A DNA stretch of 61,292 nt, the filler included, from Basidioascus undulatus (lineage: Eukaryota), in the NCBI GenBank assembly GCA_000826855.1. It is 9 parts of 9 records of this genome, joined end to end, with 100 filler letters (N's around TTAATTAATTAA, not from the genome) between each part and the next. Parts side by side here need not be neighbours in the genome. Positions count along the whole stretch, not along the records: positions 13,539 to 38,870 come from JTLS01000216.1; 8 more parts are not named here. The stretch is one strand, 5' to 3'. Position numbers and translations under genes: made by a program. Positions 4,422-56,918 of this stretch are shown one piece after another. The notes beneath the pieces were generated by a model. It did not search any database, had not been told where the DNA came from, and saw only the letters and a program-made list of their open reading frames with translations. Positions within the stretch are counted from its first letter, which is position 1; each line of letters starts with the position of its first letter.

Positions 4422-4521
4422 NNNNNNNNNNNNNNNNNNNNNNNNNNNNNNNNNNNNNNNNNNNNTTAATTAATTAANNNNNNNNNNNNNNNNNNNNNNN
4501 NNNNNNNNNNNNNNNNNNNNN
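4422..4521. other. Artificial contig linker N44-TTAATTAATTAA-N44 (also at 8938-9037, 13439-13538, 38871-38970, 43370-43469, 47859-47958, 52340-52439, 56819-56918)
   Basis: Identical 100-nt spacer with stops in all six frames, eight occurrences; genes are cut at these points. Confidence 0.99.
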
Positions 4522-4590
4522 AGTGGTTAACGCGCTGCCCTGCTAAGGCAGTTCCCTCTGGGAGCGTGTGTTCGAATCACACAGGCGTCG
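4522..4590 (+). tRNA. tRNA-Ser(GCT), 5' end truncated by contig start
   Basis: D-loop AGTGGTTAA, anticodon arm CTGCC-CTGCTAA-GGCAG, long variable arm, T-arm GTGTG-TTCGAAT-CACAC, followed by T7 Pol III terminator at 4591-4597. Confidence 0.93.
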
Positions 4591-6090: not shown

Positions 6091-6162
6091 TCCTCGTTGG
6101 TGTAGTGGCTAACATCGGGTGTTCTCACCGCCCAGCCCCGGGTTCGATTCCCGGACGAGGAA
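6091..6162 (+). tRNA. tRNA-Glu(CTC), intronless
   Basis: TCCTCGT/ACGAGGA acceptor stem, anticodon arm GGGTG-TTCTCAC-CGCCC, T-arm CCGGG-TTCGATT-CCCGG, short T-run downstream. Confidence 0.96.
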
Positions 6163-8937: not shown

Positions 8938-10266
8938 NNNNNNNNNNNNNNNNNNNNNNNNNNNNNNNNNNNNNNNNNNNNTTAATTAATTAANNNNNNN
9001 NNNNNNNNNNNNNNNNNNNNNNNNNNNNNNNNNNNNNCTGGGTTGTATGTGGTGGATGCTCATACGAGAAGGGTTTCAGTTTGATTAGATTTGGAGAGGG
9101 ATCTATGAGTACTTCAGATAGTGATGCTGAAGGTGCAGCTGGACGACAGTGCTGTCTACGGCAGCTGCGTGGCGTGTCGCTTTGAGAGCCGGCCTGATGC
9201 TGACCCGCGGGGCTCAGTCGCACTTCCTCTGAAGCTGGGATTTAGTATGTTGTAATATCTACCGCTCAAAATGATAAGTTGTGAGACGGCAATCATCCCA
9301 GTCTTTATCTAGTCTGGCAATGCACTCCTCCATCCTAGCTCTTGTAAGAGACCGCCGTACAGGCCCCATCAGTATTATGGCTGAAACTAGGATGTAATAT
9401 GAGAGCTTCATCCTCAATCAGTGGACGATACCACGATACAACGGCAACTTTGCTAAGCAACACTCTTGCAAGCGTTCCCTTCCGCGCTTGCCAACCGATT
9501 ACCTAGCACCAATTATTATCACCAATCCACATAATCATAATAATGGTAAAAAGTCCCTTTAAGTGAAATATCAGAGGCCCCAGACTTAGGCTTCGATCCT
9601 GACTGCACCACGCTGCCATTGCCACTGGTAACAGGCCCTTGACTTTGAACGACTTGCAGTCGTGTTCTCCTAGCGTCCTTAAGGACAGTGCAGGAGAGTC
9701 TCCTGAGAACTGAAACCTTCTTTTCCCTGAGTATGATGCAAGCTTCGGAAACAAGGAGCAACAAGGGCGAGTCAGTCAAACTGCCCTGCTGCGTCTCGCT
9801 TTCAGGGCTTGCATTGCCCAATCCCCTTTGATGATGCTGCTCAGTAACCAGACCACGTCGGGGTAGTTATACTCAAGCCAATCCCTCAATGCACTCGTAT
9901 CCGAAAAAGTAAGTGTACTTCCTGACAGGATGGCCCAGGCGCGACGAGATCCTGCCACTCAGCCGACCGTCGCTAAGCCTCAACCTCGAAACACTCACGC
10001 CCAAGCACTCCCAAACGTCAGCAAACTACCGTCCATTCTTCAATTCTTAGTCCCCTTCTCGCTAGGAAGAAACGCTGGGGGGGGACGGCACCTGACCGGG
10101 GCAGGTGACCGATAGTCTGCCTCCGGCATTCTCACGCTGTCGCTTCAGGAGCCAACAAGACGCTCGTGTGTCTTTCTACTCTCCTCTCACTCAGCACTCC
10201 CCATAAACCAACGCACAGAGCCAGCCTCACGAACCCATCAAGCACATAAACAAGCAATCACTCAAG

Positions 10267-13438: not shown

Positions 13439-13538
13439 NNNNNNNNNNNNNNNNNNNNNNNNNNNNNNNNNNNNNNNNNNNNTTAATTAATTAANNNNNN
13501 NNNNNNNNNNNNNNNNNNNNNNNNNNNNNNNNNNNNNN

Positions 13539-16314: not shown

Positions 16315-16913
16315 GGCTGGCGAGTATTATGTTTCGAGTTCGAGAGTTCGAAAGTGGTCGGGAGGCCGTGAGGGTCGTTAGGCGTGGGAAGTCGTGCGTC
16401 GTTGGCGAATCGTGAGTCGTGAGTATCGTTAGCAGTGCGCAGGGCGCGTGGAAGCGCCTGCTGTTGAGAGAAAGGCCAGGAGCGGGAGGAGAAGGAGGAG
16501 GAGAAGGAGTTGATGGCGAGGAGGCAGCCAAGAAGGTGCAGGGGGTTAATCGAAGCCAGGCACAGGCGAAGCCCCTATCCTGCAAGCTGGAGTCTGTCGC
16601 GTCGACCAGTCAAGTATACAGTTGAATCGTATTCTCACTCGGTGATGAGTCGTGTCCAGGTCAGCATATTTGGTCGCCTTCATATCAATGTTAGCGGTAG
16701 AGTCGTTGATGGAAGTAAGAGTTGAGGAAAGAAAGCAGAACTCGACAGGGTGTTTTGGACACGCGAAGCGACGCTTACAGTCAAGCCCTTTCGGTTTCAA
16801 AGATTCTCGGAACTGCCGAAATACAGTTGTCTGCATTCAGCGCGTCCCGAGCGCGTTCGCCTTGTCCGCATGCACTCATTCGCTCCTGCCATACCTCCTC
16901 CTCGCCAACAAAA

Positions 16914-17990
16914 ATGCCGACCTACAACGCAGCAGACTACATCGAGACCGTCCGTCTCCCTCTCCCTTCCAACTTCATATCCCCCTCCTACCATTTCCCC
17001 ACTCCCTTACACTGCCCCCGCCCCCCCAACAGGACACCGGCAACAAGGTATCCCGCAAGTCCAACATCTGCGGCGCAGTCAACATCATCCTCGGCGGCAA
17101 GACCATCATCAAGCCGAGCGCCATCATTCGCGGTGATCTGCGCCGCGCGGGGCCACAGCAGGCGATTGCGGTCAGCATTGGGAAGTACTGCATGATTGGC
17201 GAGGGATGCGTTGTTAGGCCGGCTTATAAGGTGCGTTCCCATCACCTTGCTTTCTCCCCGGTTTGTAACTGAAGAAGGTATGGGGACAGACGTATAAGGG
17301 GTGCGCCATCTGTTCTCCGACAAACACCCACCAAGGAGACGTCGCCTGACTGCGAACGTTGTGGGGAGTGGATCGCGAGCAGGACCTTCAGTTACTACCC
17401 CATCAAGATCAGCGACCACGTATCCATCGGCGCGGGGTCCGTGATCGAAGCCGCCGCAATCGGAAACCACGTCGAGATTGGAAAGAACGTTATCATCGTG
17501 CGTCTCCTCCCCCTCTTCCTCCGCCTTCCCTCTTCCCCTCTCCCCTCACCCTCTCTCCCTCACCTCATCTCCCTGTCTTCCTCTGGTGCTGATGAGACGT
17601 TGCGGGGAACAGGGCCGCTTCGTCGTGATCAAAGACTGCGTCAAGATAGCGGACAATGCCGTCATAGCGCCCAACACGGTTATCCCCTCCTTCAGCCACT
17701 TTGCCGGTTCGCCAGGTACCTTCACTTTCTTTCCTCCCTCCACCCCTTCCTCTTCCTGCTTCGCTTGTTTCCCTGCTGACGCGCAATTCGCCTGATCCCA
17801 GCGCACCACATCGAGGACCTCCCCGAGGTGACGCAGGACCTCGTTGAGGCTGCTAGCAAGTCGTACTACCAGAGCTTCCGCCCCGCGGCGGGTACGTTCA
17901 CATTCTCCGCCTCTTCCCACCTCCTACCACCTAAGTTTCCGACAATTCTGAACTGACTGAATGCCTTGGTGCGGGGCTGCAGCTGGCTAA
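16914..17990 (+). CDS. DCTN5: Dynactin subunit 5 (p25)
   Basis: YIET|DTGNKVSRKSNICGAVNIILGGKTII...IRGDLRR...FSYYPIKISDHV...IEAAAIGNHVEIG hexapeptide repeats. Confidence 0.95.
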
Positions 17991-30907: not shown

Positions 30908-31634
30908 CGTGGTGGATTGAGTGCTTTGGTTGTGTGAGGGTGTAAAGTGATGAACCTAAGGGTATTCGTGCAAGGTGAGTAAAGGAGCGAAAGAGCAGCA
31001 GTGCGTCGATCAAAAGTTGTGCGTGAGACGAGGCCGAAGAGGTGGAGCAGCGCATCGCTGACGGAAGGTGGAGCGTGAGCGTCGAGAACTGGCTCGAAGG
31101 TGGGATGACGCCATCTAGACTCCGATAAGACACGCGTTTTTTTATAGCTGTACGCGATCAGTTACACGTGCATAATGCAAGGATTAATGTTTTCGTCACA
31201 ACTCACAAGCTCATGCCGGCGTGGGAGGCGCTGATCGTCATGATGAGGGCGGCGACCGACCGCTCGCTGGTGGACGAGGCGGACGTTGGTCACTCTAGCC
31301 GCCACGTGCCGCTCGAAACGTGCTGCAAGAACTGTTTGATGTACTGGTTTTGAATTTCAAGAACAATTCATGATTGTGTTGCTCGAAGTGTACAGTCAGT
31401 GCGGATACTGGTGCGGATAGTGGCTGTGGCGAAGGAGCCAGGACGAGGAGTCGGGATCACCCCTCGTCGGCAGTCAACCTCGAGCATTACCTCGGGCCGA
31501 CAACCTTGGGATACAACAACTGTAAACCGCCCGGTACATCAGACACTAGGCTTGACTTGTCCCAAATTGCATCAAGAAGCGGTGAGAAGTCGGCAGTCGC
31601 TCGAATGGCAGCCATTTTGATTGCGTCAAAGAGT

Positions 31635-31643
31635 CTATATTTC
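31635..31643 (+). promoter_or_regulatory. TATA-like element upstream of the permuted tRNA
   Basis: CTATATTTC about 50 nt upstream of the 3' half; position fits an external Pol III promoter (inference). Confidence 0.4.
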
Positions 31644-31689
31644 AAAAGGAAGAGGTCGTTACCGTCAGTTTGATCAAACGGTAGTCGGG

Positions 31690-31762
31690 ATCAGGGGGTT
31701 GCAGGTTCGATCCCTGCGTCGGTCACGGCCGGCTGGCTCAATGGTAGAGTATCTGACTACGA
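31690..31762 (+). tRNA. Circularly permuted tRNA-Arg(ACG): 3' half 31690-31725, 1-nt spacer, 5' half 31727-31762
   Basis: Swapping the halves gives a complete 72-nt cloverleaf: acceptor GGCCGGC/GTCGGTC plus A73, D-arm GCTC-AATGGTA-GAGT, anticodon arm TCTGA-CTACGAA-TCAGG, T-arm GCAGG-TTCGATC-CCTGC; TTATTTT follows. Confidence 0.88.
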
Positions 31763-32199
31763 CTTATTTTGTTCCTTAATAGGTTTTCTTCCTTTTGACA
31801 GGGTGCGCCAAGAACCAGTCCGTTCAATAGACACAGTTCCTAGGAATCAAAGCTGCGAAGATGTCAAGAGACAGGTTGGAATAGCCCTTGCCTGCACAGG
31901 AAATTTAGCAATGTTTTGTACAGGTTTGGGAGCAAGAATAGCCCCATGCACAGCTGTATTGGGTGTAACGGAACGTTGACAACAGGCAGCACCAGCAAGT
32001 CCGGCAGCCAGGTCTTGTACATGAGGTCGGATCATCGGCTACCAAAACTTGTAATTGTAGCCAGGGCTATCCATAATAAGATCGAAGAACAGAGCGCATC
32101 GGACACCCTCGAGCTCGTTCACTCGTCAGCTGTTCCAGAGAATAGAGATGTTAACGTTGCGGTAGTACGGTGGCGGAGCTTCAAGGTAAACACCGAAGC

Positions 32200-38785: not shown

Positions 38786-38970
38786 CGCCGGACGATGATG
38801 ATGGGTGAGGTGAGGGTGGATGGGGGTGGGGAGGGGGGTGACACGTGAAGTCGGCGGGGGAGGAGGCAATNNNNNNNNNNNNNNNNNNNNNNNNNNNNNN
38901 NNNNNNNNNNNNNNTTAATTAATTAANNNNNNNNNNNNNNNNNNNNNNNNNNNNNNNNNNNNNNNNNNNN

Positions 38971-43369: not shown

Positions 43370-43469
43370 NNNNNNNNNNNNNNNNNNNNNNNNNNNNNNN
43401 NNNNNNNNNNNNNTTAATTAATTAANNNNNNNNNNNNNNNNNNNNNNNNNNNNNNNNNNNNNNNNNNNN

Positions 43470-47858: not shown

Positions 47859-50318
47859 NNNNNNNNNNNNNNNNNNNNNNNNNNNNNNNNNNNNNNNNNN
47901 NNTTAATTAATTAANNNNNNNNNNNNNNNNNNNNNNNNNNNNNNNNNNNNNNNNNNNNGAGCTCCAAGCTGCGCTACTCGAGAAGGCGCTGGCAGCGACG
48001 TTTGCGGGCGAGGGGTTAGTCGCGGGGTGGGATCGCGTTTGGTGATCCCGACTGGGCGCTGTCAATTTATACGCAGAATGACTCTGGACGCTTTGGGCTT
48101 TGGACCTTTGGCTTTCGTTCATGTTCCCCTTCTTCGTCTTTCGCTTTCGCTTCGCCCCTTCCCTTTTCTTTTCTTCTCCGGGTTCAGCAGCGCCGCTTTA
48201 TTCGTCTGTTCGTTGACCAGAACACTACTCGCTAGAACCAAACTCTCGACCGCCAAACCGCTTCCCCGCTCCCCGTCCCCGAGTTCGCCCCCACCCCTCC
48301 CCTCCGCTTCGCTCGTCTTTGATCATACTACTGCAGTATATCTTTTCGACATTCCCCCGACACCCACTCGCCCACACCCAAGTGTTGTCTGTTTGTTTGT
48401 ATGCTCCTTCATTCCCTTCGTTGTTTTGCTCGATATCGACCCATTTGAACGCATACCGCTCTTGTTACAGTCGTGCTGCTTACGATGTGGGATCCCTGAG
48501 CGGGCAACTCTGGTTGCCTGTAATACCCGATAGTTCAGATTTCGCTCGCCGTACAACTCCCTAATGTACTTATGCTGAAGGCGTCCTTTGCGTGCTATTT
48601 GGTCTAACGAAAACAAGTTTTGCGTGCGCGGACTACCGCTGCAGCCAGCGGGGACGGTGGTTGCTTACGTGGTGACTGTTGGAGCTTTAAAAATGCTCTC
48701 CTCTTCCTCATCAGATATTACACTGTCGTACCCAGATGCACAGGTATGTTGTCAGCCTGTACCAGCCGCAGAAAAACGGGTACTGCCTCCCGCACTATCA
48801 GCCGGGCGCGGCGCCCAACTGCGGCGAGCACGCCACTGGCACTTTCGACTTCCCGGACGGTCCGGCATCGCAGTCGTTTGGCCAGCAGCGATGGTCGTTC
48901 TCTTGGATCTAGGAGGTGTGCGATGGGCGGAATTGGGCGACCTATCTGCTCTGGCTTTCATAGAGATGGATATGGATTCGCTTTGGGACTCGTGAGGAGA
49001 AGATAGACTCTGATTATGCGTATGGTAACGAGAACTGGGAACATTCCTCCAGCAAGTCCGATCCAATTCTCGCATTCAGCAAGCTCCTTAGTACCATCTT
49101 CTGGATTGTGCCGCGAGCATACAGCGCACTCACAGCGGCATAGGTTGAGCAAAGTTGAGCGCACTGCGAGTCGCCTTGCAAAGCATTAAAGGACGATGGG
49201 AACATCGAGCAGGCACTGCACGCGTTCGAGAAGCCCGTAAAGGTCACGGCTAGACCGCACCGCAGTACTCACGGCCGACGACATCGCGATGCGTTGCAGT
49301 ATGGCGGAGGAGGTACATTTCTAATCGGAAATGTTACTTGTTGGAACCGTTACACATCAGGCACGGCGCGCTCTGAGCGAAGAATAAATGGAGCTAGAAT
49401 CGCAGTTAGGCACAGCCGTTGCGTTCAATTGTGAGACGTTGGACAAGCGAAGATTTTCCGGATGTGAGTGCATGGACCATGGTAACTGAACGACAGTAAG
49501 CCGTAAAAGTTTGTATGCAGCGACTCACCCAGTCTCCCCAGCATCCAGCCTCCCCAGCACCCCCACCCATCGGCCCTTACCGACCGTCCCCGCACCGCCA
49601 GAAGACTCGCCAGCGCAGTAACTAGGCCTGATCACCGCGTTCAGATCAGATGCGGCATCCAATAGGTGACGGAGGGATTAGAAGCTCCAGATTCCTTCTA
49701 CTAGGAGATTCAAAGTTAATTTCAGATCAATCCGCCGAGCTAGAACGCACAAGTGGCTGCGACTCGCTTGCTCGTCCTTGCGTTGTCTCTGGCGTTGACA
49801 ACTTGAAGGGGGAACGCAACCCACCCAAAACCTCTAGCGGTTTCCTATAAATAATTCCCCGAACAGAGTATGGTCGAAACATCGAGCAGGCCCCGGCACT
49901 GGTACTGTAAATGCTGATCCCGAAGGCGGAACGGCAGCTGCAGTCTCAGTCCCGATGGGCAACCGTGCGTGTGCAGGGGACTGGACAGCTGCAGCCCTTC
50001 GAGGAAATGGCATGAGAGGAAAGAATGGCTAGTGATGCACTCGTGCGAGCGATGCCAGTCGAGTGGACGCTGCCTGTTGCTGCCTAATTGCCAAGCCCTA
50101 TATTCAAAGCCCTCTCTCTCTTTCCCCGTTCTGCTCCGCACCCCGAAATCACGTCAAAATAGTATGGTGTGGTATATGCTTCGTCGCAACTCTCCCAGTC
50201 AGTCATCGAGCAATCCTTCATCAACCCCTTCTCTTTCCCTTCTCTTCCTCTCTCCTCAGTTGGCTCCCTCCCCAACCCGAACCCAGCGAGACGAAGCGGG
50301 GAGGCGGGTGGGCGAGCG

Positions 50319-52339: not shown

Positions 52340-52439
52340 NNNNNNNNNNNNNNNNNNNNNNNNNNNNNNNNNNNNNNNNNNNNTTAATTAATTAANNNNN
52401 NNNNNNNNNNNNNNNNNNNNNNNNNNNNNNNNNNNNNNN

Positions 52440-56818: not shown

Positions 56819-56918
56819 NNNNNNNNNNNNNNNNNNNNNNNNNNNNNNNNNNNNNNNNNNNNTTAATTAATTAANNNNNNNNNNNNNNNNNNNNNNNNNN
56901 NNNNNNNNNNNNNNNNNN

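Follow-up and report, generated by a model that had tools for sequence, protein, structure and literature searches.

In the present study, a locus in a basidiomycete fungus is described that is probably a working circularly permuted nuclear tRNA-Arg(ACG) gene with its junction at 37/38 (type II), belonging to a multi-copy family. The locus lies in a window of 61,292 nucleotides, the whole stretch of DNA that was analysed. Reading of 31500-31950 showed that the two halves of the tRNA stand back to front on the + strand, with positions 38-73 first, a one-base spacer next and positions 1-37 last (Table 1). Because the back half of the gene comes first, its RNA must be cut, joined and reopened in order to work. 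The earlier note on this DNA had placed the break one base 3' of the anticodon, at the canonical eukaryotic intron site, and both sequence reading and ARAGORN agree, with A37 at 31762 and A38 at 31690. After rotation of the halves by coordinates, ARAGORN returned a tRNA-Arg(acg) of 72 nt with a clean cloverleaf, although the permuted gene was not detected by this program in the unrotated window. All arms form in the rotated tRNA (21 of 21 stem pairs), and the fold is thus clearly beyond chance; the conserved nucleotides U8, A14, G18G19, U33, A37 and GTTCGATCC are readable in it. Several of the features by which type II permuted genes were defined (Soma 2007) are present here, namely a 3' half upstream of the 5' half on the same strand with a spacer at the acceptor boundary between them, and, from regex searches, an upstream TATA-like sequence, a downstream T-stretch and a spacer free of terminators, as it is a single C. 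The acceptor, D and anticodon arms that make up the mature domain of a Sen/TSEN substrate also form, with a caveat for pair 1:72 in the uncut chain. No further permuted unit was found elsewhere in the window by a regex for the T-loop and A box.

The window consists of nine contigs joined by N44-TTAATTAATTAA-N44 linkers, and the tRNA lies well inside the 25.3-kb piece at 13539-38870. The remaining whole pieces are approximately 4.4 kb long, and the first and last pieces are cut by the window ends. Since the linkers join separate contigs, genes across a linker are not true neighbours.

Table 1. Positions of the permuted tRNA-Arg(ACG) gene and its parts, of the other tRNA genes and of the linkers in the window.
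Feature	Position	Strand	Basis and remarks
Candidate upstream Pol III promoter, TATA-like TATATTT, 48-54 nt before the first tRNA base	31636..31642	+	Regex and reading; putative function
Leader 3' part AAACGGTAGTCGGG, in the predicted role of the 3' portion of an intron; predicted removal at 31689/31690	31676..31689	+	Reading; soil contig X4 identical except A31677>G
GTAG, complement of anticodon-loop C32-U33-A34-C35 (31757-31760); candidate anticodon-intron helix	31681..31684	+	Five bases before A38
tRNA 3' half, positions 38-73: anticodon-stem 3' strand, variable loop, T arm, acceptor 3' strand, discriminator A73	31690..31725	+	Sequence reading, ARAGORN on rotated halves, stem-pair check
B box, within the T arm of the 3' half	31704-31714	+	
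Spacer C between A73 and G1, single base	31726..31726	+	Sequence reading
tRNA 5' half, positions 1-37: acceptor 5' strand, D arm, anticodon-stem 5' strand, anticodon, A37	31727..31762	+	Sequence reading, ARAGORN on rotated halves, stem-pair check
A box, within the D arm of the 5' half	31734-31745	+	
Anticodon ACG	31759-31761	+	A37 = 31762
Trailer CTTA, then T4 (31767-31770), Pol III terminator-like; predicted removal at 31762/31763	31763..31770	+	Reading and regex
Apparent tRNA-Ser(GCT), class II, ordinary order, 3' two-thirds only, T7 terminator	4522-4590	+	Cut by contig start; Rfam tRNA partial, 19.8 bits
tRNA-Glu(CTC), ordinary, intron-less	6091-6162	+	49.2 bits, E-value mode
Linkers	4422-4521, 8938-9037, 13439-13538, 38871-38970, 43370-43469, 47859-47958, 52340-52439, 56819-56918		

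Comparison with ordinary genes supports the proposal of the earlier note that this gene looks like an intron-containing tRNA opened inside its intron. When metagenomes were scanned with the 5' half as anchor, 20 loci (approximately 15 distinct sequences) were recovered, every one in ordinary order. The five closest relatives (L003, L008, L012, L014 and L018) are on eukaryotic metagenome contigs and represent four distinct sequences, L008 and L012 being the same; their exons are identical to the permuted tRNA at 64-65 of 72 positions. An intron of 8-11 nt at 37/38 is present in all five, and among the other 15 loci L015 alone has an intron at this site. The tetramer or pentamer GTAG(G), the complement of C32-C35, occurs in three of the five introns, four bases before A38 compared with five in the permuted leader. 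The trailer of the permuted gene starts with CTT, and the introns of the closest relatives start with ATT or ATC. Upstream TATA-like runs and T4-T5 terminators are likewise common to these relatives and the permuted gene, whereas the relatives are collinear with a closed intron hairpin and the ends of the permuted transcript fall at the loop of that hairpin. Given the 37/38 introns and the shared GTAG, the permuted precursor corresponds to the precursor of its relatives with the small intron hairpin opened in the loop. In the JGI metagenome contigs, a pattern made of a T arm followed after 14-30 nt by a D arm, as at the permuted junction, gave no matches, which counts against the proposed gene.

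The same comparison speaks for selection on the tRNA. The permuted tRNA differs from its five closest relatives at 7-8 positions, which alter four stem pairs, and all four still pair in the permuted tRNA. Pair 7:66, which links the two separated halves, shows a two-sided compensatory swap from G-C to C-G, and a T-T mismatch at 6:67 is repaired. This compensatory change suggests selection on the tRNA fold and was counted in favour of a working gene. In addition, CGT, CGC and CGA make up 27 of the 69 Arg codons in four Pfam-supported exon stretches, so the cell needs a tRNA-Arg(ACG).

The pairing of the leader with the far end of the transcript was also analysed, and the complementarities pointed out in the earlier note were confirmed as sequence matches. 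AGTCG (31683-31687) and CGACT (31760-31764) are perfectly complementary in antiparallel orientation, and GTAGTCGGG (31681-31689) pairs with TCTGACTAC (31752-31760) through seven Watson-Crick and two G-U pairs. With the cloverleaf fixed, the AGUCG:CGACU register gains 7.3 kcal/mol, but the 5' cut falls inside the helix; the GUAG:CUAC register (R3a) gives -2.2 kcal/mol, keeps the anticodon stem and leaves a 6-nt bulge. The 9-bp register gains 8.3 kcal/mol and displaces the anticodon stem. G31687 does sit at -3 from A38, as had been noted, and its proposed pair with C32, leaving a 3-nt GG/A bulge, is possible; this pair is not favoured, as it makes the fold 1.4 kcal/mol less stable than the bare cloverleaf. 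The candidate partners of C32 are G31687 (-3) and G31684 (-6), and the sequence gives preference to neither. G at -3 is found in none of the five closest introns, which have G at -4 or -5 instead, and a pairing base at -3 is absent from four of the five; L015 has G at -3. The unconstrained fold of the precursor adopts the AGUCG:CGACU register, but the fold of the whole precursor is unremarkable (z = -0.87, 38 of 200 shuffles as good). The leader gain of -7.3 kcal/mol with the cloverleaf enforced was matched by 44, 71 and 196 of 1000 shuffled leaders of 14, 20 and 26 nt, respectively. In other words, leader complementarity by itself is only marginally above chance, and the comparative evidence weighs more. 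TSEN has been described as using a ruler mechanism on the tRNA body (TSEN54 on the acceptor and D arms) together with one proximal anticodon-intron pair (PMC10485636), and its local sequence requirements as relaxed (PMC10485636, PMC4090602). Since the enzyme uses mainly the tRNA body, a weak local motif is no strong objection. The idea that the leader is a decayed copy of the gene's own D arm and A box is a weak one, as the local alignment score was matched by 1137 of 2000 shuffles; an alignment of the trailer with the 3' half was matched by 1550 of 2000.

The order of the halves also affects transcription. With the B box in front of the A box, the start of Pol III is probably directed by the TATA-like element, and in published permuted genes transcription is described as driven by an upstream TATA-like element, owing to the inverted order of the A and B boxes (PMC3978253). 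TATATTT is also present in the soil contig X4, immediately before its aligned part, and TATA-like runs are found approximately 30-45 nt upstream in the five closest ordinary relatives. At the other end, other copies of the permuted gene have TTTTTG or (CTT)TTTGG directly after A37. With regard to transcription, two points count against a working gene. First, a B box before an A box is unsuitable for TFIIIC. Second, no TATA-like run is present in the 70 nt upstream of tRNA-Glu(CTC), which is the only ordinary tRNA gene of the window whose upstream region can be read. A bacterial promoter and terminator scan gave nothing and is inapplicable to Pol III. Upstream of both the permuted gene (31630-31642) and the ordinary tRNA-Arg(ACG) of L018, AGAGTCT is followed by a TATA-like run, at a distance to the first tRNA base of 53 nt in the permuted gene compared with 33 nt in L018; this may be a shared upstream promoter element or may be due to chance.

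Herein, we propose a maturation pathway in which the layout of the gene is what is observed and from which we infer every step. Pol III would start upstream of the 3' half, probably via the TATA-like element, and would stop in the T-run of the trailer. The transcript would fold as a normal tRNA body, with its open ends where the loop of an intron hairpin would be, and the 3' end of the leader would pair with the anticodon loop, placing the 3' cut site in a bulge adjoining the anticodon stem. The Sen endonuclease, measuring from the tRNA body, would cut at the two predicted removal sites, and a Trl1-type ligase would join A37 to A38, resulting in a circle of 73 nt. RNase P would cut between C31726 and G1 and thereby open the circle. 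The leftover 3' C would either be trimmed off, by tRNase Z or by an exonuclease, or stay in place as C74, to which the CCA-adding enzyme would add the rest. Finally, deamination would turn A34 into inosine, as happens in tRNA-Arg(ACG) of other eukaryotes. For a basidiomycete host, Trl1 is a better fit than RtcB, as most Basidiomycota are reported to be without RtcB (PMC3400036). This mechanism is not new; it is the published Soma/Maruyama pathway, in which the splicing endonuclease cuts at a BHB-like junction, ligation produces a circle, and RNase P and tRNase Z then open it (PMC3978253).

The most unusual part of the gene is the one-base spacer with its two-base acceptor loop. Contigs of four public runs (X1-X4, DNA-like) were aligned to 31400-32000. 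In these, the spacer was read as a base other than C in 0 of 3210 cases in X1, 0 of 955 in X2 and 0 of 93 in X3, and it is T in the soil-metagenome contig X4. A73 and C31726 form a loop of 2 nt, which is forbidden by the energy model, and thus pair 1:72 must open in the uncut chain or in the circle; the earlier note was therefore right that the spacer poses a question for RNase P and RNase Z. A 2-nt acceptor loop is without precedent among the 34 permuted tRNA genes tabulated in a 2014 review (PMC3978253), and it might block RNase P, which counts against a working gene. Because the spacer is C in every X1-X3 copy, we speculate that it could serve as C74 after the RNase P cut, making tRNase Z unneeded, but the U spacer of the soil relative speaks against a general use of this kind.

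The strain in this loop also bears on an alternative to the circle, in which RNase P, with or without tRNase Z, cuts the spacer first, and Sen and the ligase then act on a two-piece substrate, held together by the 7-bp acceptor stem and tertiary contacts, as in archaeal split tRNAs. An early cut would relieve the strain of an uncut chain in which 1:72 is forbidden, and TSEN54, which reads the acceptor stem, may favour a stem formed before splicing (PMC10485636). Despite these points, we consider this order of events unlikely, since in red and green algae the circular intermediate has been detected experimentally and the intervening sequence is removed last, as described in the 2014 review (PMC3978253).

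For the proposed permuted gene, the aligned runs point to a multi-copy family. X1 and X2 are possibly the window's own source and hence not independent for this locus. The X4 contig, 151 nt in length, covers 31644-31785 in one piece with five differences and keeps the permuted order and the one-base spacer, and its C28>U exchange leaves the pair with G42 intact. Two longer contigs, one of 18.5 kb in X1 (record 3) and one of 4.2 kb in X2 (record 11), carry 31689-31772 with seven differences, and these differences mark another locus with the same order. The contigs flanking the gene in the window end at 31712 and resume at 31740, as expected for a repeat. A junction-crossing unitig at 31696-31748 has a depth of 298 in X2, compared with 17-19 in the flanks, and one at 31696-31751 has a depth of 473 in X1 (flanks 43-49) and 175 in X2. 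The junction-spanning pieces thus have approximately 10-17 times the single-copy depth, although such contig depth ratios are a rough stand-in for copy number only. In each of X1 and X2, 17 of 55-56 contigs fit partly and run into different flanks, and long contigs from other loci cross A73-C-G1 (31719-31762, 31725-31769 and 31695-31751). From the depth and the differing flanks, there are probably about ten or more permuted copies. Similarity between the copies ends at 31675-31695 on the left side and at 31762-31775 on the right side; the last 7-15 bases of the leader are common to several copies, being kept from 31675, 31677, 31680 or 31683 onward, and the trailers vary, yet T-runs directly follow A37. 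Among the pieces listed for runs X1-X4 at 31400-32000, which are filtered records and not the whole genome, the ordinary joint of 31762 to 31690 is present in no contig. Because pieces down to 25 nt were reported, an ordinary copy with similar exons should have shown, and its absence among the listed contigs is suggestive, not conclusive.

Such a family might also be non-functional, consisting of relics of tandem duplication or retro-copies of a permuted or circular pre-tRNA, with ordinary genes elsewhere supplying the cell. The copies do share a unit of approximately 85-100 nt including some leader and trailer, as a retro-copied Pol III transcript would, and an X3 contig with a 63-nt period points to truncated or tandem units; moreover, contigs of the runs, not the full genome, were examined for ordinary copies. 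Nevertheless, we regard this explanation as rather improbable. The cloverleaf is perfect and has a compensatory change across both halves, every visible copy retains the T-run after A37 although the trailers are otherwise different, and no joined ordinary copy is found among the contigs aligned. Furthermore, the shared unrelated body and tail of SINEs and retro-pseudogenes are not seen among the copies listed, whose flanks diverge at once. If the permuted copies are working genes, a stronger proposal may be advanced, which we hold only tentatively and with some doubt: the whole supply of tRNA-Arg(ACG) might come from about ten or more permuted genes with no ordinary copy, which would make this the first permuted tRNA of fungi and of opisthokonts as a whole, and a single RNase P cut might leave A73-C to be extended by the CCA-adding enzyme, with tRNase Z unneeded.

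The closest known systems are the type II permuted genes of Cyanidioschyzon merolae, Ostreococcus, Micromonas and the Bigelowiella nucleomorph, which share with this locus the 3' half placed first, both halves on one strand and the junction one base after the anticodon (Soma et al. 2007; Maruyama et al. 2010; PMC3978253). These genes are also described as having an upstream TATA-like sequence, a downstream T-stretch and no encoded CCA, as here, and their leader and trailer might fold into a relaxed splice motif at the usual position of introns (PMC3978253). The present locus differs from them in its fungal host, in being apparently multi-copy and in being known from gene sequence alone, and its spacer of 1 nt contrasts with spacers of 5-74 nt in the eukaryotic cases (PMC3978253). 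Thermofilum pendens tRNA-Tyr(GTA) is the sole published permuted tRNA with a one-base intervening sequence according to these sources (Chan, Cozen and Lowe 2011, PMC3218864; PMC3978253), but this gene is archaeal, has its junction at 59/60 and also has an intron, and it encodes CCA, so that its acceptor loop is longer than the 2 nt found here (PMC3978253). The removal of such a short T. pendens spacer is left open by the review (PMC3978253). The 34 tabulated genes come from C. merolae, two Ostreococcus, two Micromonas, the B. natans nucleomorph and T. pendens, and Arg(ACG) is absent from that table (PMC3978253). Permuted tRNA genes are also reported in Auxenochlorella (PMC12633428), and a 2026 review places permuted genes in algae and archaea (PMC13578239). 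Permuted tRNA genes have so far been viewed as a peculiarity of a few algae and one archaeon. In the searchable literature, which reports algae and archaea only, no fungal permuted tRNA was found. Thus, the novelty lies in the fungal host, in Arg(ACG) as the isoacceptor, in what appears to be a multi-copy family and in an acceptor loop of two bases.

The host assignment agrees with the protein-coding content of the window. A dynactin-5 exon (Pfam DCTN5) at 16649-17269, on the same contig as the tRNA, has named matches that are all fungal and mostly Basidiomycota, with 44-70% identity. Two matches on further contigs of the window agree with this: a CCT4 exon shares 86-92% identity with Tremellomycetes yeasts, and an oxidoreductase ORF matches only Basidiomycota. 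The tRNA contig therefore appears to be fungal and Basidiomycota-like. According to the 2014 review, eukaryotes with 37/38 introns and upstream promoters could have permuted tRNAs and most do not (PMC3978253), and in the basidiomycete Cryptococcus neoformans introns are reported in 132 of 143 tRNA genes (92%) (PMC4090602). A fungal case, in the phylum to which this yeast belongs, supports the repeated origin of permuted genes by duplication of intron-containing genes. The host is close to well-developed yeast genetics, in which Sen, Trl1, RNase P and the CCA enzyme are all manipulable. With a loop tighter than in any of the 34 tabulated genes (PMC3978253), the tRNA offers a natural substrate for studying RNase P and tRNase Z on a strained circle. 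In addition, because standard tRNA finders miss permuted genes, fungal genomes seemingly without tRNA-Arg(ACG) merit a second look.

The best Rfam match of the locus is YrlA (RF02553), which aligns end-to-end over 31671-31778 with 42.5 bits and an E-value of 2.5e-8. YrlA has the same order of T arm, acceptor-like stem and D arm, closed by a stem of both ends, and with the full model aligned the locus might be read as a tRNA-like non-coding RNA of this Y-RNA-like kind that never becomes a decoding tRNA. This is very improbable, since the score is below the gathering threshold of 69, YrlA is a bacterial and phage family that is not a decoding tRNA, and the complete anticodon arm kept here (U33, ACG, A37) is not required by the aligned YrlA model positions. 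The match more plausibly reflects the shared permuted architecture and is a structural echo consistent with a permuted gene. At gathering thresholds, Rfam gave no matches in the whole window; tRNA-Glu(CTC) is also missed, so this result is uninformative.

Finally, an assembly artefact joining parts of two ordinary tRNA genes is next to impossible. The window is a draft stitched from nine contigs, and the repeated nature of the tRNA makes Logan contigs end within it, but unitigs of 53-56 nt cross the junction and the permuted order is not an assembly artefact, since single contigs of separate runs (X4, X1 record 3 and X2 record 11) span the unit.

In the aligned runs, two loci stand out. One (X1 record 4 and X2 record 12, 31695-31751) crosses the permuted junction with five differences and loses its similarity on either side precisely at the start of the anticodon stem; this may mean a decayed copy or a permuted gene for some other tRNA. 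The other is the X3 contig with the 63-nt period (record 17, 93 nt), which aligns to 31718-31742 and then to 31680-31747, its D arm (...AATGGTAG) running directly into TCGGG and the 3' half. This arrangement points to a tandem or truncated permuted unit at another place in the genome, and it is a hint that an upstream tRNA 5' half may have given rise to the leader.
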